Shown piece by piece: positions 19,537-63,517 of a stretch of DNA of 64,000 nucleotides. Numbering within the stretch: the stretch's first letter is position 1; every line of letters starts with the position of its first letter. A program made the position numbers and the translations under genes. Source of the stretch: a phage; sequence record PZ386947.1. One strand, given 5' to 3'. Below the pieces are notes generated by a model. That model did no database searches. It worked only from the letters and a program-made list of their open reading frames with translations, and was not told where the DNA came from.

Positions 19537-19857
19537 TTATAGCGTAATCCATTCTCGTACTGTCTGAGTTACTACACGTTCATGGGGCTCGACTAGTTCA
19601 ACAGTCGGAACTGCATAATACCAGTCAGAATGATAAGAACCTGACCGAGATTCATTTACCGCTACATGTACATTATGTTTTGGACTAAAGTAAACAAACT
19701 GACGATATTGGCATTTACCATCTTGCACCCAGTCTTCTATTTCGATAGGTTTAAGATAGTCGGAAAAATCGAAATCATAGTTTTCCGAAAATGCATCATG
19801 GTCTTCAATGATTTCGCTCAGAACTGCATCAACATCTAATTTATTTTCAATAGTCAT
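19537..19857 (-). CDS. hypothetical acidic protein
   Basis: 106 aa ORF. Confidence 0.5.
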   Translation of the reverse strand: MTIENKLDVDAVLSEIIEDHDAFSENYDFDFSDYLKPIEIEDWVQDGKCQYRQFVYFSPKHNVHVAVNESRSGSYHSDWYYAVPTVELVEPHERVVTQTVREWITL

Positions 19858-20517: not shown

Positions 20518-20760
20518 TTATTCCTTAATTCCTAGTACTTGTTTAAAAGTCTCGTCGTAATCAAGACTTTGGCCCGTTTGTTCTTTATGTTTGTATATAA
20601 TATCACTTACTTCTGATAGCATATTTTTATATGAACGAGTTAAAGCAGATTTAAGCACGCTGTATCTATCAGGAAATTTACCATGTTCATTATAATAAGC
20701 TATTGCTAATTCATGGACTGCCTTTTCAGCAGCCTCCATATATTCTTTACGCTTGGTCAT
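20518..20760 (-). CDS. hypothetical protein
   Basis: 80 aa ORF. Confidence 0.5.
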
Positions 20761-20762
20761 TT

Positions 20763-21152
20763 TTAATCCAAAATATTATTAGGCATTGGTTGAACACTCA
20801 CAAGTTCTTTAAAGAACTCAGTAGAGTCAGGCAATTTAACCATTTCCGGAGCATGCTTACTGAATTTATGTTTACATTGACGGCATTTATATTCAAGCTC
20901 TGGTTTACGCCAGTTAATCAATTGAACTTGTTCAGTACCGCATTCAGGGCAATTAGGAACGTTTTTAGAAGCTCTTTCACGTCGTTCAACCATAGCCATA
21001 ATAGCATCCCATGCTGGAGGTTTAAAATCTAAATCGTCGCAGCCGTGAATCTTTCCACGCATTTCCATATCATCTTCCTCACCAGCCATAATAATTTTAA
21101 TTAGACTAGAATTACTTGAAGCTGCAATATCTTCTAATAAACGCTTTTTCAT
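20763..21152 (-). CDS. zinc-ribbon protein
   Basis: 129 aa with CPEC...CRQC pair. Confidence 0.55.
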
Positions 21153-22075
21153 TTCAGTACCTCAATAGCATCACGTAAACCATTTGCTTTGGCGGTTAAA
21201 GCCTTAAGAACTTTAGTATGCTCTTCAATTTGTTTTTCAACTTCAATCAAACGAGCATTGAGATATTCGCGTTCTTCTTTCATAGTATCATTTCCATGAT
21301 TAGATTTTGGTGTAGGTTTAAATTCACTAGGGTCCTTTAATTTAATAACAAATTTAGTTTCAAACAGTGAAAGACCATAATTCGTATTATCATCAAAGGA
21401 TTTGACTACATCCATATCAGATAATAACACGCGCAAATTATAAGCCAAAGAACTAATAGTTTCATTGTGTTTATTAGCTTCGCGTGGTTTCATATACGGA
21501 AGATTTTTATATATCTCATGCGGAGCGCAAACGATAATTGACAATTCAAATTGTCCATTCTGGGACGATGGAATGAATTTAGCCGTAACCCAGTCTTTTA
21601 CATTCACATTAATAGTACGGTTATCACCATGACAAAACAGTCTACGAGAATGCTTAAAAAGCATATTCACGTTATTATTGAATTCGTGTGAAAATTCACT
21701 AGCAAATTTTTCTTTACTATCTTTAGAAAACCATTCTTCTAAATAAGTTCTTTTCACATCGTTAATAATATTAAATGTAACAACACTAGCATTTGATACA
21801 TTAGTCTCAATGTAGCTTGGATACATAAATTTTTTAACATTATTAACAGCTATCACAGAAGATAGTAATCGGGAACGTTTGAACCACTCGAGCAAAGAAC
21901 CAAGAGAATGTGAATACGCATTTTGTGTATCTTTACAAATATGGTTTTCCCATCCAATATAGTCTAAAAAATCACGAAGAATATTATTGATTACTGCTCT
22001 GTGTCCTATCTGATAATCACGATGTTTAGTAATAAGACTGTCAAAATAATCAATATAATGTTTACGAGTTTTCAT
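21149..22075 (-). CDS. hypothetical protein with C-terminal coiled-coil (paralog family member A)
   Basis: 308 aa; N-term MKTRKHYIDYF; C-terminal heptad-rich 45 aa. Confidence 0.6.
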   Translation of the reverse strand: MKTRKHYIDYFDSLITKHRDYQIGHRAVINNILRDFLDYIGWENHICKDTQNAYSHSLGSLLEWFKRSRLLSSVIAVNNVKKFMYPSYIETNVSNASVVTFNIINDVKRTYLEEWFSKDSKEKFASEFSHEFNNNVNMLFKHSRRLFCHGDNRTINVNVKDWVTAKFIPSSQNGQFELSIIVCAPHEIYKNLPYMKPREANKHNETISSLAYNLRVLLSDMDVVKSFDDNTNYGLSLFETKFVIKLKDPSEFKPTPKSNHGNDTMKEEREYLNARLIEVEKQIEEHTKVLKALTAKANGLRDAIEVLK

Positions 22076-22129
22076 GTTCTTCTCACTTGGTTAATGATTT
22101 ATACTCCGAGCCATCCTTGGCTTTAAATT

Positions 22130-23128
22130 TTACTTAATTAACTGTAAAGCTTGTTCAAGACGATCCAAGCGATTGACAGATTCTTCCCAAATCCTTTTAG
22201 CCTGCTCATATTCTTTCTGCGCTTTATTAGAAATTTCTAGAACTTCTTTATAAGCTTTTTCTAATGCAATAACTTCTGGACGAATTTCTACCGGTTCAGG
22301 TGAATCATCAAGACATTCCATTAGTTCCTCAAGGGTAGTTTCTTCTTTAGGAGTATTCACAATTTCATCACATTTTTGTTGGTAAATTTCTTTACTAGTA
22401 GGTGAATAAGTACATTTCACTTCACGAAGACTAACTACAATTTTATATCCTTCCCAACCGCATATATTCTTAAAAGGATATGTATGAATATTTTCTACTG
22501 TTTCCATACAGCCCAAAACCGCCTTTAATTGATAAGTTATAGTGCTAGCAATTGAGAAAAATTTATTAATATTCTTTTGGTTAGCGTTTGGTGTAAAAAA
22601 TCCATAATTCACAAAAATAGCTACTTTATTTTCATCAAGCTCATATTCTTTTACGATAATCATATCAGAAGCCAAAGGATGAATTTGACGATAATCGCCA
22701 TAACATAATTTAGAAGCTGATTTTAGAATTTGTCCTTTGAAAAGTCTGAAATTACTAATCCAACGACGAGTAAAAATATTCTCAGGGGCTTCTTTATTAA
22801 GATGATAAGAATTAACATCACCGAACCAATTATATCCTACTACATCTTTAGTTCGTTTAATTTCTTTCCCAAATTTACTAAGAATATCTCTGTTGACTAA
22901 GTATGAAAGAAGACGAGACCCTTTAAAGGTTTTCTTAATGTCATCTTTATCTACACGGCTAGAAATTTCACGAACTTCATGAATAAATTTGCCGGAAGAA
23001 ACAATACTTGCATCAGTATTATTGAGCCATTGATTGATAATAGAAATCACACTATTCTTACTAGACATAGGTTTAACTTTATCATCAATAACGCTATTGA
23101 ATGATTTGATATATTCGTTACGAGTCAT
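22130..23128 (-). CDS. hypothetical protein with C-terminal coiled-coil (paralog family member B)
   Basis: ORF track 22130..23179; start trimmed to MTRNEYIKSF (GAGGAG RBS); the extension upstream runs into a promoter. Confidence 0.6.
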   Translation of the reverse strand: MTRNEYIKSFNSVIDDKVKPMSSKNSVISIINQWLNNTDASIVSSGKFIHEVREISSRVDKDDIKKTFKGSRLLSYLVNRDILSKFGKEIKRTKDVVGYNWFGDVNSYHLNKEAPENIFTRRWISNFRLFKGQILKSASKLCYGDYRQIHPLASDMIIVKEYELDENKVAIFVNYGFFTPNANQKNINKFFSIASTITYQLKAVLGCMETVENIHTYPFKNICGWEGYKIVVSLREVKCTYSPTSKEIYQQKCDEIVNTPKEETTLEELMECLDDSPEPVEIRPEVIALEKAYKEVLEISNKAQKEYEQAKRIWEESVNRLDRLEQALQLIK

Positions 23129-23156
23129 AATAATCTCCTCAGTAGAAAGTAAGAAC

Positions 23157-23185
23157 ATTATACCACATCCTTGTGGCAAAGTAAA
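23157..23185 (-). promoter_or_regulatory. T4-type early promoter
   Basis: Minus strand TTTACT, 17 nt, TATAAT upstream of 22130..23128. Confidence 0.55.
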
Positions 23186-24205
23186 CTAGTTCAGTGCATT
23201 TAGTGCATTGTTCAGTTTAGAACGTTGCTTCGTGAGATTTTTGACTTTTTCTTGAGCTTTTTCTAGCATCTTTTCAGCTTCTAGCACTTCATTGGTCGCT
23301 TTAACGAGTTCATCATCTACTGCCTTGATAGACTTCTCAATCGCATCCGCGTGCCATTTTTCAACAGGTTTAAGACTCGGATTTTCAATAGGAAGAAAAT
23401 TCACTTTATTGAATTTCCATGCATCTTTATTACCTGAACTATACATCCAAAATTTAGGATCGTTTGATGAGTAATTAGATGAATTTAAGTTATCTTGCAC
23501 TTCTTGCTTTTTCTCTTGCGGGACTTCGTCCTTTCTCAAAAAATCGTATTTAAATGAAACGATCATATCAAGTTCATATGTTGTTGTATGTTCCCAATTT
23601 CGCTCAAAACGAGGTAAAATCTTAGAATGAACAGCGGCAACAACATCCATATACTTAAATGCTTCTGTCAACTGCGATTTAAGGCATTCGCAAATTGAAA
23701 GAGAATTTTTTGTATTAGGTTTAAAGCTAATTCGTGCAGTTCTATTATTTTCTTTTAATGGTCTTACTTCCATCTGAAGAGTATAACCATCAAATTTCAG
23801 GTTCTTTAAGTTAATATCAGAACCTTTTAATCGACTAGCCGTCGACAAAATTTGCTTTAATTGTTTACGGAATAGAGCAATAAATCTCCATTCAATACGA
23901 TAATGATTTGGATTGAAAAATCCAGATGATAAATCGACCTTACTCTGACCAACACCTTGAACAAACAGAGGATTTTTATAATCAATAGTTTTACAGAAAT
24001 CGGTGAGCTGCTCACGAGCAGTCATTTGTGTAATATATCCCGCTTTACTAAAATGACGTAACCATTCACTGCTATTCATATACTTAAAGTGAATGGAACT
24101 ATTAACTCTATCAGGGTCTAAATTATTTTGGCACAAAAATGTCATAACATCACGAGTATAGCTGGCATTACGAACCATATCTTCAATTTGAGAACGAGTT
24201 TTCAT
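23186..24205 (-). CDS. hypothetical protein with C-terminal coiled-coil (paralog family member C)
   Basis: 339 aa; N-term MKTRSQIEDM resembles member A. Confidence 0.6.
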   Translation of the reverse strand: MKTRSQIEDMVRNASYTRDVMTFLCQNNLDPDRVNSSIHFKYMNSSEWLRHFSKAGYITQMTAREQLTDFCKTIDYKNPLFVQGVGQSKVDLSSGFFNPNHYRIEWRFIALFRKQLKQILSTASRLKGSDINLKNLKFDGYTLQMEVRPLKENNRTARISFKPNTKNSLSICECLKSQLTEAFKYMDVVAAVHSKILPRFERNWEHTTTYELDMIVSFKYDFLRKDEVPQEKKQEVQDNLNSSNYSSNDPKFWMYSSGNKDAWKFNKVNFLPIENPSLKPVEKWHADAIEKSIKAVDDELVKATNEVLEAEKMLEKAQEKVKNLTKQRSKLNNALNALN

Positions 24206-24213
24206 AGTGTTCC

Positions 24214-25116
24214 TTAAGATTTAAGTAAATCAACAATTTTAATTAATTTTTCACGCTCAGATTTAGCTTTACTACTCAATCCAGATAGTCTGAAAATTTC
24301 ATCGTCATATTGTTGAATAGAAATATTCAGCTCTTCAATTTGCTTATTAAAATAATCAATTTGTTCAGAATGTTTTTCGTTACTACGAACTGGTACAGGT
24401 TTTGTAGGCAATTTAGTTGAACTGGATTCATCCGGGCGATAAATTAAAATACAACTTGAACCAATAGGGCATTTAGCACCAGATGAATATTCTAACGTTC
24501 CAGCTTCTTTTAAAACTTCAAAAGCTAAACAGAGATGATGCCCCATATTAACATAATCTGTAGAGCGAGCTCTGATATAATAATCATCGCCGCGAATACT
24601 AAATTTAAAGCATTTAAGGTCTTCTGTATTATTGGTCTTAAAAATCATTTGTTTATCTAGACCTTTAGCTAATCGAGCGCCTAATGCTAATAATCGTCGT
24701 TGATTTTCCCACAAATCCGCAATCATTTGATCGAATGATAATTTCGGCATTAGTCGACCATAAAGGTCATATCCTTTATTATAATTGCGAAGGATTTCAC
24801 TCGCATTAATACGAGACAACGCTCCAATTTTATTAAGGGCTTTCATAATGCGATTAGATAAACCCATTCCAGACCCGTTTGTTCGTTGTAAATGTTTATC
24901 TAATCCAAACCCAATATCAACTTTAAATTTATCTAAAATTTCAGCATGAACATCTCTGTCAATAACATTCAAATCCAAAGTTGGGTTAAATCTATGAAAA
25001 AATTTATCTGGCTCTCCACGACGAAGTACAGTCCATTCATTTAATTTTTTATTAACTAAAGATTTAATTACTGCATTGACATTATTAATTACTACTGACA
25101 TATTTTTCTCACTCAA
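24214..25116 (-). CDS. hypothetical protein with C-terminal coiled-coil (member D)
   Basis: 300 aa; C-terminal heptad-rich tail. Confidence 0.6.
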   Translation of the reverse strand: MSEKNMSVVINNVNAVIKSLVNKKLNEWTVLRRGEPDKFFHRFNPTLDLNVIDRDVHAEILDKFKVDIGFGLDKHLQRTNGSGMGLSNRIMKALNKIGALSRINASEILRNYNKGYDLYGRLMPKLSFDQMIADLWENQRRLLALGARLAKGLDKQMIFKTNNTEDLKCFKFSIRGDDYYIRARSTDYVNMGHHLCLAFEVLKEAGTLEYSSGAKCPIGSSCILIYRPDESSSTKLPTKPVPVRSNEKHSEQIDYFNKQIEELNISIQQYDDEIFRLSGLSSKAKSEREKLIKIVDLLKS

Positions 25117-47154: not shown

Positions 47155-47379
47155 TTATTCAACGCCAGCGGCTTTCAAAAGTTTCTTAAGATTGGCAACA
47201 CCTTGAGCAGAAAATGTGACCTTGCCACCTTTTTCACTGATAGAACCAACCAATTTAGCAAGTTTATCATTAGGAATTTTTTTAAAATCAGCCAATGTTC
47301 CATCAAAGGTTTTTGAAACAAAAGGCAGTTCGTCTTCGCGTCTTTTAGCTTCTACAATAAATTCTTGATATGTTTTCAT
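47155..47379 (-). CDS. internal-protein-like (capsid targeting sequence)
   Basis: Starts MKTYQEFIVEA, near-identical to the T4 IP capsid-targeting sequence with I-V-E cleavage site; small basic protein. Confidence 0.65.
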   Translation of the reverse strand: MKTYQEFIVEAKRREDELPFVSKTFDGTLADFKKIPNDKLAKLVGSISEKGGKVTFSAQGVANLKKLLKAAGVE

Positions 47380-60845: not shown

Positions 60846-61712
60846 ATGTTCATTCAAGAACCAAAGAAATTGATTGATACCGGCGAAATTGGTAACGCTT
60901 CTACTGGTGATATCTTATTCGACGGTGGTAATAAAATTAATAGTGATTTTAACGCAATTTATAATGCGTTTGGCGATCAGCGTAAAATGGCAGTAGCAAA
61001 TGGCACTGGAGCAGATGGTCAAATTATCCATGCTACTGGATATTATCAAAAACACTCTATTGCTGAGTATGCAACTCCAGTAAAAGTTGGCACTAGACAT
61101 GATATTGATACCTCTACTGTAGGTGTTAAAGTTATCATTGAAAGAGGAGAACTTGGCGATTGTGTTGAATTCATTAATTCTAATGGATCAATATCAGTTA
61201 CTAATCCTTTAACGATTCAGGCTATTGATTCAATTAAAGGTGTTTCAGGTAATTTGGTAGTAACTACTCCATATAGTAAAGTTACTTTACGCTGTATTTC
61301 ATCTGATAATTCTACGTCGATTTGGAATTATTCTATTGAAAGCATGTTTGGTCAAAAGGAATCACCAGTTGAAGGTACGTGGAATATTTCTACATCTGGA
61401 TTAGTTGACATTCCATTGTTTCATCGCACTGAATATAACATGGCTAAATTGTTAGTTACATGCCAGTCAGCAGATGGAAGAAAAATTAAAACAGCAGAAA
61501 TAAATATTCTTGTGGATATTGTTAATTCAGAGGTCATTTCTTCTGAATATGCTGTCATGCGAGTTGGGAATGAAACCGAAGAAGACGAAATCGCTAATAT
61601 TGCATTTAGTATTAAAGAAAATTATGTAACGGCGACTATAAGTTCTTCAACTGTCGGTATGAGAGCAGCAGTTAAAGTTATCGCTACGCAGAAAATCGGG
61701 GTGGCTCAATAA
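60846..61712 (+). CDS. 9: baseplate protein gp9 (long tail fiber socket)
   Basis: 288 aa, same length and position as T4 gp9. Confidence 0.92.
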   Translation: MFIQEPKKLIDTGEIGNASTGDILFDGGNKINSDFNAIYNAFGDQRKMAVANGTGADGQIIHATGYYQKHSIAEYATPVKVGTRHDIDTSTVGVKVIIERGELGDCVEFINSNGSISVTNPLTIQAIDSIKGVSGNLVVTTPYSKVTLRCISSDNSTSIWNYSIESMFGQKESPVEGTWNISTSGLVDIPLFHRTEYNMAKLLVTCQSADGRKIKTAEINILVDIVNSEVISSEYAVMRVGNETEEDEIANIAFSIKENYVTATISSSTVGMRAAVKVIATQKIGVAQ

Positions 61713-63517
61713 TGAAACAAAATATTAATATCGGTAATGTTGTAGATGATGGTACCGGTGACTACCTGCGTAAAGGTGGTATAAAAATAAATGAAAACTT
61801 TGATGAGCTTTATTACGAGCTTGGTGACGGTGATGTTCCATATTCAGCTGGTGCCTGGAAAACTTATAATGCTTCATCAGGACAAACATTAACAGCAGAA
61901 TGGGGAAAATCATATGCCATTAACACTTCATCTGGAAGAGTAACTCTACAACTTCCTAAAGGAACCGTTAATGATTATAATAAAGTAATTAAAGCTAGGG
62001 ATGTATTTGCAACATGGAATGTTAATCCAGTTACTCTAGTAGCCGCTTCTGGTGATACTATTAAAGGATCATCGTCATCAGTTGAAATTAATGTTCAATT
62101 TAGCGATTTAGAATTAGTTTATTGTGCTCCAGGACGTTGGGAATATGTCAAAAACAAACAAATTGACAAAATTATTAGTTCAGATATTAGTAATGTAGCA
62201 CGTAAAGAATTTTTAGTCGAAGTTCAAGGACAAACAGACTTTTTAGATGTTTTCCGTGGAACTAGCTATAATGTTAATAACATCCGAGTAAAACACCGCG
62301 GTAATGAATTATATTATGGCGATGTATTTAGTGAAAACAGTGACTTTGGCTCTCCTGGGGAAAATGAAGGAGAATTGATTCCTCTTGATGGATTTAATAT
62401 TAGGTTAAGACAGCCTTGTAATATTGGTGACACTGTTCAAATTGAAACATTTATGGATGGTGTATCACAATGGAGAAGTTCATATACAAGACGCCAAATA
62501 AAAGTACTGGATTCAAAACTAACATCAAAGACTTCTTTAGAAGGAAGCATTTATGTTACTGATTTATCAGCGATGAAATCAATTCCATTTTCTGCATTTG
62601 GATTAATTCCTGGTGAACCCATTAATCCTAACTCTCTTGAGGTTCGTTTTAATGGAATTTTACAACAACAAGCTGGAACAGCCGGATATCCTCTGTTTTT
62701 GTGTGAAGGTGCTAATTCAGATACGCAAGAAGGATGTATATCTCTTGGTGGTGAATGGAAGGAATCGAATACAGATTATTCTATAGAATATGAAGATGGA
62801 AAACCTGTCAGTCTTTTATTTGATAGAAAATTTGAATCCGGTGATATAATCGTTATAACATGGTTCAATAATGATTTAGGAACTCTTTTAGAAAAAGATG
62901 ACATTATTGAATTAACTGATGACCGTTATGTTAGTAAAGGATCATCTACTGAAGTTACTGGTGATGTAGCCTTAACAGATTTTGATAAAATCGGTTGGCC
63001 AAATGTTGAAAAAGTTGATTCTTATACTAGAACGTATAATTCAATATCATCTATTTTCGACAGCATTTATCCTGTTGGTTCAATTTATGAAAATGCTATA
63101 AATCCAAATAATCCAGTGACTTATATGGGATTTGGTTCATGGAAATTATTTGGTAAAGGGCAGGTTTTAGTAGGATGGAATGATGATGTTACAGATCCAA
63201 ACTTTGCATTAAACAATAATGATTTAGATTCTAGCGGAAATCCTTCACATACCGCCGGTGGAACAGTTGGTACAACATCAGTAACGCTTGAAAACGCAAA
63301 TCTTCCTGCGACTAAAACTGATGAAAGAGTTTTAATTGAAGACGAAAATGGATCAGTTATTATTGGAGGATGTCAATATGACCCAGACGAAACTGGTCCT
63401 ATATATACAAAATATCGTGAAGACTACGCAACAACAAACTCTTCACATACTCCTCCTACTAATATTAGTAATATTCAACCGTCTATTACTGTATACCGTT
63501 GGATAAGGATTGCATAA
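61712..63517 (+). CDS. 10: baseplate wedge protein gp10
   Basis: 601 aa; length and position as T4 gp10. Confidence 0.92.

Follow-up and report, generated by a model that had tools for sequence, protein, structure and literature searches.

The 64,000-nucleotide stretch of phage DNA analyzed here (record PZ386947.1, called the window throughout) comes from the T4-type Shigella phage CM8 and carries on its minus strand four open reading frames (ORFs) in succession, listed at 21149-22075, 22130-23179, 23186-24205 and 24214-25116. By the T4 reference annotation and synteny they are the orthologues of T4 nrdC.3, nrdC.4, nrdC.5 and nrdC.6, with nrdC.2 on one side of the array and the small membrane protein nrdC.7 on the other. 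The 3,968 bases of the array are 100% identical to CM8 and 90-99% identical to about 490 further Tequatrovirus genomes. An earlier note on this DNA, made without database searches, had described four consecutive proteins of similar size with heptad-rich, charged ends and had proposed a locally duplicated, diverging family of unknown function. The similar sizes hold after two start corrections, which give 308, 332, 339 and 295 amino acids (aa) for nrdC.3 to nrdC.6. The start of nrdC.4 moves to the ATG at 23128, which is preceded by a GAGGAG ribosome-binding site (332 aa instead of 349), and that of nrdC.6 to the ATG at 25101, where the homologues and the PHROG model begin too (295 aa instead of the 300 of a TTG-started ORF). 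The genes and their parts are as follows.

21149..22075, minus strand: nrdC.3 orthologue, family member A, 308 aa; Phage_T4_Y04OP type, phrog_1435, T4 synteny
21152..21286, minus strand: nrdC.3 C-terminal heptad-repeat tail, about residues 264-308, ending LRDAIEVLK; 38% charged, from periodicity
22130..23128, minus strand: nrdC.4 orthologue, family member B, 332 aa; PF26897 Phage_T4_Y04OP, phrog_1435
22133..22279, minus strand: nrdC.4 C-terminal heptad-repeat tail, about residues 284-332, ending LEQALQLIK; 40% charged, from periodicity
23186..24205, minus strand: nrdC.5 orthologue, family member C, 339 aa; DUF7235, phrog_2351; T4 counterpart published as an anti-Dsr1 gene
23189..23368, minus strand: nrdC.5 C-terminal long helix and heptad tail, residues 280-339, ending LNNALNALN; AlphaFold2 helix, periodicity and tail-only hhalign
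24214..25101, minus strand: nrdC.6 orthologue, family member D, 295 aa; PF26899 Phage_T4_Y05B, phrog_2257
24217..24381, minus strand: nrdC.6 C-terminal helix-break-helix tail, residues 241-294, ending LIKIVDLLKS; AlphaFold2, periodicity and tail-only hhalign
24439..24861, minus strand: core conserved across the superfamily, residues 81-221 in the nrdC.6 model; motif 1 helix-turn-helix MKALNKIGALSRINASEILRNY, motif 2 helix QRRLLALGARLAKGLD, then a beta-beta-alpha-beta-beta unit

Existing family models cover all four proteins. Both nrdC.3, which is 92.5% identical to its T4 counterpart, and nrdC.4 match phrog_1435 over their full length (E 1.3e-100 and 1.3e-164), and PF26897 is carried by proteins identical to the nrdC.4 of the window. 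P0118 is a naturally occurring nrdC.5::nrdC.3 fusion, and PF26897 is also assigned to the half that it derives from nrdC.3. The nrdC.5 protein aligns from residue 1 to 339 with positions 1-307 of the 307 in PF23882 (DUF7235; E 1.6e-125, 419 bits, the gathering cut-off being 30), is 91.8% identical to T4 nrdC.5 over 97% of its length, and lies in the same place between nrdC.4 and nrdC.6. For nrdC.6 the match to phrog_2257 (E 4.7e-153) starts at residue 6 of the TTG-started ORF, and PF26899 is present on 105 of 105 homologues, including those that are 99% identical. In the T4 reference nrdC.6 is annotated as 275 aa (L001 10067-10894) and tblastn covers it in two pieces; the protein has 295-296 aa in other Tequatroviruses and in the T4D genome used for HIDEN-SEQ, which suggests that the reference carries a frameshift or differs in sequence. 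In many GenBank records of phages "thioredoxin" is the label given to nrdC.3 to nrdC.6, and to nrdC.10 as well, although none has a thioredoxin domain, and the label seems to have been propagated from the locus name nrdC.x. A Pfam scan detected no thioredoxin or glutaredoxin domain in any of the four proteins, and this identity was rejected for them. Scans with Pfam and PADLOC gave no enzymatic domain for the four, and PADLOC returned no meaningful match.

The C-terminal tails are the most readily visible common feature. Charged residues make up 36-40% of the last 50 residues vs 25-27% of the remainder of each protein, and the Fourier power of conserved hydrophobic positions in the last 60 residues, calculated per family, peaks at a period of 3.5 residues and is higher there than at 3.6. 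In a permutation test the period-3.5 signal reached p <0.0005 for nrdC.4 (72 family members) and for nrdC.5, 0.016 for nrdC.6 and 0.04 for nrdC.3, whose best heptad window is residues 278-305; this heptad scoring is home-made and stands in place of a calibrated coiled-coil predictor. The charged, heptad-rich character that the earlier note had assigned to the last 45-55 residues is thus borne out in all four proteins. AlphaFold2 models the nrdC.5 tail as a single 59-residue helix (280-338, pLDDT 73-90) and that of nrdC.6 as a helix at 241-274, a break, and a second helix at 277-294. Heptad periodicity in a long, proline-free helix, the mark of a coiled coil, is thus supported for the tails, and all of them close on the common pattern [R/K]-L-x-x-A/I-[L/I/V]-x-x-L-[K/N]. 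They are predicted to oligomerize as coiled coils. At the other end of the proteins, the N-terminal strings singled out at the outset (MKTRKHYIDYF, MTRNEYIKSF and MKTRSQIEDM) are present and mutually alignable with MAFFT, M(K)TR being common to three proteins, and the N-terminus of nrdC.6 (MSVVINN) differs.

Whether the bodies of these proteins are related is less apparent from direct comparison. An all-against-all alignment, the check on which the proposal of a duplicated family had been staked, gave a mixed answer: BLASTP linked nrdC.3 with nrdC.4 (24.5% identity over 200 aa), but linked neither nrdC.5 nor nrdC.6 to any of the other three. Profile comparison reaches further. The nrdC.5 profile was rebuilt without P0118, in the presence of which nrdC.4-nrdC.5 scored 10% in hhalign and the other pairs near zero, and the profiles were widened with distant relatives from the same locus in Dhakavirus, Gaprivervirus, Mosigvirus, Moonvirus, Kanagawavirus and Jiaodavirus genomes. 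The rebuilt profiles give 91% for nrdC.4-nrdC.5 (E 9e-7, core columns 85-274 vs 48-231) and 82% for nrdC.5-nrdC.6. Exhaustive HMMER searching with a four-family profile against 1.84 billion representative proteins returned no more than 29 matches. These include two bridging groups, X1, with four metagenomic proteins and a 338-aa protein of Enterobacter phage CIP9, and X2, with a 315-aa protein of Klebsiella phage F48-type genomes. The hhalign probabilities at full length, and for the core only (profiles minus the last 70 residues), are these.

nrdC.3 with nrdC.4: full length 97.9%, E 5e-13; core only 98%
X1 with nrdC.6: full length 98.6%, E 9e-16; core only 96.7%
X1 with nrdC.5: full length 97.3%, E 2e-11; core only 81.9%
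X1 with nrdC.4: full length 94.7%, E 6e-8; core only 95.6%
X1 with nrdC.3: full length 82.4%, E 1e-5; core only 64.6%
X1 with X2: full length 98.4%; core only 91.4%

Tail-only comparisons are likewise high (nrdC.5-X1 96%, nrdC.5-X2 97%, nrdC.6-X1 97%). All 30 forward vs reversed profile controls remained at or below 1.3%, and controls with neighboring genes (the nrdC.8 family, also helix-ended, and two unrelated ORFs of the locus) at or below 1.8%, so the similarity of the core outside the coiled coil stands above the controls. Among 134 six-frame ORFs of the window, the X1 HMM matches nrdC.6 (1e-16), nrdC.5 (2e-10) and nrdC.4 (4e-6) and nothing besides, and no further paralogue was found elsewhere in the window. 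The proposal of a locally duplicated, diverging family is consequently supported, by way of X1 at 82-99% over the full length, by links that persist once the tails are removed, and by clean controls. These profiles make the four genes old tandem duplicates, by now strongly diverged, of a single protein superfamily.

The alignment built with MAFFT is consistent with this conclusion. Motif 1 reads FK-x-SRLLS...IL-x-x-F in nrdC.3 and nrdC.4, FSKAGYITQMTAREQLTDF in nrdC.5 and LNKIGALSRINASEILRNY in nrdC.6, and motif 2 reads ILKSASKL-x-YGD in nrdC.4, ILSTASRLKGSD in nrdC.5, LLALGARLAKGLD in nrdC.6 and LFKHSRRLFCHGD in nrdC.3. All four families also have a central helix with Q/H-L-x-x-A-L/F-x-x-M/L between beta-hairpins and a Pro-x-Pro/Val junction ahead of the tail, and in this alignment nrdC.3, nrdC.4 and nrdC.6 are only 15-23% identical to T4 NrdC.5. 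Five parts can be told apart in each protein: the N-terminal region is helical and variable, the conserved core comes next, and then follow a variable and partly disordered linker, the Pro-x-Pro/Val junction and the heptad-repeat helix. In the core the helix-turn-helix motif is joined by the 'A-S-R/K-L-x-G-x-D' helix and the beta-beta-alpha-beta-beta unit, and the tail helix spans 45-60 residues.

A competing account of these similarities is that nrdC.5, nrdC.6 or both are not true homologues of nrdC.3 and nrdC.4, and that an exchangeable coiled-coil module together with mosaic intermediates has joined unrelated N-terminal bodies. Strict-family direct comparisons do give low values (nrdC.5-nrdC.6 1.9%, nrdC.3-nrdC.5 7%, nrdC.4-nrdC.6 12.5%), natural chimeras exist in the form of P0118 and of P0238 and P0228, which place foreign N-termini on intact tails, and P0118 did contaminate the first nrdC.5 profile. 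However, the X1 matches to nrdC.6, nrdC.4 and nrdC.5 persist when only the core is compared, the nrdC.4-nrdC.5 match lies over core columns, both motifs and an identical order of secondary structure can be aligned in all four families, and the reversed-profile and neighbor-gene controls are negative. The members of X1 are moreover only about 15-30% identical to any parent family and are therefore not recent recombinants. Taken together these observations make non-homology a highly improbable explanation.

Structure prediction gives a first view of the superfamily. The AlphaFold2 model of nrdC.6 (pLDDT 77, pTM 0.65) has a helical N-terminal half, with the motif 1 helix-turn-helix at 81-106 and the motif 2 helix at 134-144, followed by the beta-beta-alpha-beta-beta unit at 167-221, a disordered linker at 227-242 and the tail. 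Mean pLDDT per 10-residue block is 74-92 over residues 81-150, 46 over 151-160 and 70-93 over 161-220. Foldseek of this model against BFVD retrieved its own family and then uncharacterized 300-335-aa proteins of 12-16% identity from T4-like phages of Enterobacter, Pectobacterium, Acinetobacter and Klebsiella (E 2e-6 to 1e-2, TM about 0.45-0.49); entries for nrdC.3, nrdC.4 and nrdC.5 were not among the matches. In the PDB no chain reached E < 1e-3 with the superfamily profile, nor did the nrdC.6 model resemble any solved structure. There is no invariant column in the superfamily alignment, and positions with at least 90% conservation are solely Leu, Ala, Pro and Glu, which speaks for a role in binding or scaffolding and against an enzyme.

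Every occurrence of the superfamily found so far is in T4-like phages (Tevenvirinae and related metagenomic contigs). A comparison across T4-like genera, of the presence/absence kind that the earlier note had suggested for T-even genomes, shows that the number of copies at this locus ranges from one to four by genus: four in Tequatrovirus, three in Mosigvirus, three in Dhakavirus and Gaprivervirus, and one each in Moonvirus, Kanagawavirus and Jiaodavirus (phage PKO111), the last unannotated. Among Tequatroviruses the flanking nrdC, nrdC.1 and nrdC.8-nrdC.10 are 97.5-100% identical in amino acid sequence. Within the array the identities are 60-98% for nrdC.3, which has two allele classes (dN/dS 0.12-0.36), 88-92% for nrdC.4 (dN/dS 0.19-0.27), 90-95% for nrdC.5 (dN/dS 0.18-0.24) and 94-99% for nrdC.6 (dN/dS 0.03-0.08), with 98-100% and 0-0.09 for nrdC.8-nrdC.10. 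The dN/dS values indicate that all four are real genes under purifying selection, and amino acid change is faster in nrdC.3-nrdC.5 than in nrdC.6 and nrdC.8-nrdC.10. The interior of the array also undergoes natural deletion, fusion and, in one instance, internal duplication. In P0118, residues 145-271 of nrdC.5 are fused to residues 134-308 of nrdC.3 at the junction KFNKVN|MLFKH, and because the join lies at non-homologous positions it looks like the product of illegitimate recombination.

What these proteins do is suggested by one member and by its neighbors. Srikant, Guegler and Laub (eLife 2022, PMC9391042) reported a T4 clone that lacks part of this region and does not plate on E. coli carrying Dsr1; the early gene nrdC.5 of T4, expressed alone from a plasmid, restored plating on the Dsr1 host. 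"Unknown function", as originally proposed for the whole family, therefore needs amending for nrdC.5. The sensor domain of Dsr1 is described as recognizing the phage major capsid protein (2026 preprint, PMC12803255). Literature searches on DUF7235, anti-Dsr1, nrdC.3, nrdC.4 and nrdC.6 gave nothing beyond the 2022 eLife paper. The gene at 23186-24205 of the window is the orthologue of the T4 anti-Dsr1 gene, at the same position and with a full-length DUF7235; the other three are distant paralogues with the same architecture. They differ from T4 NrdC.5 in belonging to separate Pfam and PHROG families, and the anti-Dsr1 activity is known for the T4 allele. On the nrdC.3 side, at 0.4-1.7 kb from the array, lie the orthologues of gp49.2 (19537-19857), which counters OLD (PMC13096335), and of nrdC.1 (20518-20760), which counters Septu (bioRxiv 2025.11.20.689424). 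With anti-OLD and anti-Septu orthologues beside the array, the stretch behaves as a counter-defense island. All four array genes are scored 'Non-essential' on E. coli K-12 in the HIDEN-SEQ transposon table (bioRxiv 2025.11.20.689424).

The account we consider probable is that the array encodes tandemly diversified, non-enzymatic, oligomeric inhibitors of host defenses that descend from ancient duplicates of a superfamily specific to T4-like phages. In such a mechanism the proteins would be expressed early, would act by binding and would oligomerize through the tail, each blocking one host immune protein stoichiometrically. The target of nrdC.5 would be the SIR2 NADase Dsr1, which it would block perhaps by occupying the sensor or locking an inactive state, whereas nrdC.3, nrdC.4 and nrdC.6, once duplicated and diverged, would have acquired other defense proteins or other variants of Dsr1 as targets. 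An accessory, arms-race character of the genes is suggested by as few as 29 representatives, by the varying copy number, by the lower identities and higher dN/dS of nrdC.3-nrdC.5, by the rearrangements within the array and by the dispensability on K-12. Since nrdC.5 counters Dsr1 and the four belong to a common family, the remaining three are good candidates for immune evasion, and we infer that they too inhibit host defenses. A more specific and more tentative version, for which we hold out a possibility rather than an expectation, is that a T4-group phage maintains its immune-evasion proteins as a tandem multigene family with a common fold not recognized before, in which the core and oligomerizing tail are re-used, the N-terminal and linker surfaces have diverged, and each copy has been retargeted, to Dsr1 in the case of nrdC.5. 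Homologous tails might also allow the paralogues to co-assemble.

Several observations weigh against inhibition of host defenses by all four proteins as members of one family. Coiled-coil oligomerization stands at the level of prediction, and direct binding of NrdC.5 to Dsr1 is likewise something that we infer. In the one conditional HIDEN-SEQ comparison examined (bioRxiv 2025.11.20.689424), insertions in nrdC.3, nrdC.4 and nrdC.6 were without effect (q = 1). The nrdC.6 protein is far more conserved than nrdC.3-nrdC.5, a pattern more in keeping with a conserved target than with an arms race. Direct profile comparisons of nrdC.5 with nrdC.6, and of nrdC.3 or nrdC.4 with nrdC.6, are weak without intermediates (2-13%), so the links between these proteins, and with them the membership of nrdC.5 and nrdC.6, rest on transitive profile evidence. 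The AlphaFold2 model of nrdC.5, from a shallow alignment, is poor (pLDDT 45) and was therefore left out of the fold searches; a shared fold is indicated by sequence profiles, not by structures.

Some of the same facts would suit a real family with another early role in host takeover or metabolism, such as a scaffold in nucleotide synthesis or a function at the nucleoid or in transcription, the effect of nrdC.5 on Dsr1 then being indirect, for example through a changed NAD+ supply or the timing of the capsid-protein trigger. The location among nrd genes, the strong conservation of nrdC.6, the unpublished mechanism of nrdC.5 and the lack of a phenotype in the one conditional HIDEN-SEQ comparison examined are all compatible with such a role. 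It accords poorly with the dispensability of all four genes on K-12, with confinement of the family to a hypervariable locus at 1-4 copies per genus, with the ability of plasmid-borne nrdC.5 alone to restore plating on the dsr1 host, and with direct counter-defense genes as immediate neighbors, and the Pfam scan detected no metabolic domain. We regard this explanation as unlikely, though it is the most serious of the alternatives considered.

The N-termini raise a further alternative, that the proteins travel inside the capsid and enter the cell along with the DNA, as T4 internal proteins do, M(K)TR-x-E/H-Y-I serving as a capsid-targeting sequence. The capsid-targeting consensus of T4 internal proteins is an N-terminal sequence that ends in an I/L-x-E protease site. 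The strings MTRNEYIKSF and MKTRKHYIDYF loosely resemble MKTYQEFIVE, the N-terminus of an internal-protein-like ORF at 47379 of the window, but inspection found no I/L-x-E cleavage site after the motif in nrdC.3, nrdC.4 or nrdC.5, the motif is absent from nrdC.6, and MK(T) starts are common in the window. In addition, nrdC.5 is described as an early gene and works from a plasmid in the host (PMC9391042). Packaging is for these reasons hardly credible, and inhibition of host defenses remains the reading that we prefer. The ORF at 47379 is itself one of several minus-strand ORFs of 74-157 aa (starting at 47379, 47751, 48081 and 42997) that begin MKTYQEFIVE, MKTFKEF or MKSYTQF and look like internal-protein genes with a capsid-targeting sequence.

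Comparison with known systems helps to place these proteins. DSAD1 is a phage protein of unknown ancestry that blocks the SIR2 defense protein DSR2, reportedly by direct binding (PMC10981675, PMC11087589 and further reports), and since it thereby neutralizes a defense-associated sirtuin it can be called a functional analogue. It differs in its target, which is DSR2 and not Dsr1, in its phage lineage and in its architecture, and no relationship in sequence or fold was found on comparing the profile with the PDB and the nrdC.6 model with solved structures. The counter-defense clusters of T4 (the dmd-tifA-adfA 'anti-TA island', gp49.2 and nrdC.1) are likewise early, dispensable, hypervariable and clustered, with one host system each, but consist of unrelated small proteins, whereas the array has four adjacent paralogues on one 300-340-aa scaffold, which indicates diversification by tandem duplication. 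PF26897 and phrog_1435 already group nrdC.3 with nrdC.4, PF26899 already defines the nrdC.6 family, and Pfam holds Y04OP, DUF7235 and Y05B as three separate families of unknown function, here joined via intermediates. Already known, then, were the genes as such, the grouping of nrdC.3 with nrdC.4 and the phenotype of nrdC.5. A union of the three Pfam families into one superfamily, with its core and tail defined, appeared neither in the paper texts searched, which did not extend to supplementary files, nor in the Pfam and PHROGs family descriptions returned.

T4 is the best-studied lytic phage, and about half of its genes are without known function. A consequence of the superfamily is that nrdC.3, nrdC.4 and nrdC.6 become three ready candidates for new counter-defense factors, and that the conserved core and tail are defined as mutation targets for dissecting how nrdC.5 blocks Dsr1. 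Together with the 1-4 copies in other T4-like genera, the array forms a natural series on which the retargeting of a phage inhibitor by duplication could be studied, and a widespread 'thioredoxin' mislabel is corrected. The outcome is a set of testable candidates and not a new principle.

A number of smaller observations accompany these results. Rejected as members were nrdC.8, which has a helical C-terminus and was considered as a fifth (hhalign at or below 0.5%), the 256-284-aa ORFs of phages CIP9 and PKO111 (on profile comparison), and P0246, a secreted repeat protein with a chance match to motif 2. A search of IMG/VR for related loci added little diversity. In Klebsiella phage PKO111 an unannotated 324-aa ORF lies in a 1-kb gap of the record (L021 13154-14128; NC_031095 about 61059-62033), and it belongs to the superfamily (hhalign 93.8% to X1). 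The locus of the P0118 fusion, from a T4-like phage, is on metagenome contig PASO19-1 scaffold_6 (L023 4570-5900; also L024), where nrdC.4 is deleted and a 115-aa ORF just upstream of the fusion (4570-4917 in L023) is a putative N-terminal remnant of nrdC.5. The nrdC.6 of Shigella phage Sf25 (P0120, 378 aa) has an 83-residue internal tandem duplication (IRAHSTDY...KQIEEL) that spans the beta-alpha-beta part and the beginning of the tail. Four short metagenomic ORFs (P0238, P0228, P0234 and P0243) have an unrelated N-terminus and an intact nrdC.5 or nrdC.6 tail, and are either deletion remnants or cases of the tail moving as a module.

Directly upstream of nrdC.4 there is a promoter-like site (TTTACT, a 17-nt spacer and TG-TATAAT; 23157-23185 of the window, minus strand), and a promoter scan across the region found no excess of such sites over shuffled sequence. 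The adjoining nrdC.2 (20763-21152) encodes a zinc-ribbon protein (CxxC...CxxC) of 129 aa vs 104 aa in T4, and its start overlaps the nrdC.3 stop by 4 bases. Its identity among Tequatroviruses is only 60-100%, so that the variable zone begins one gene ahead of the array.

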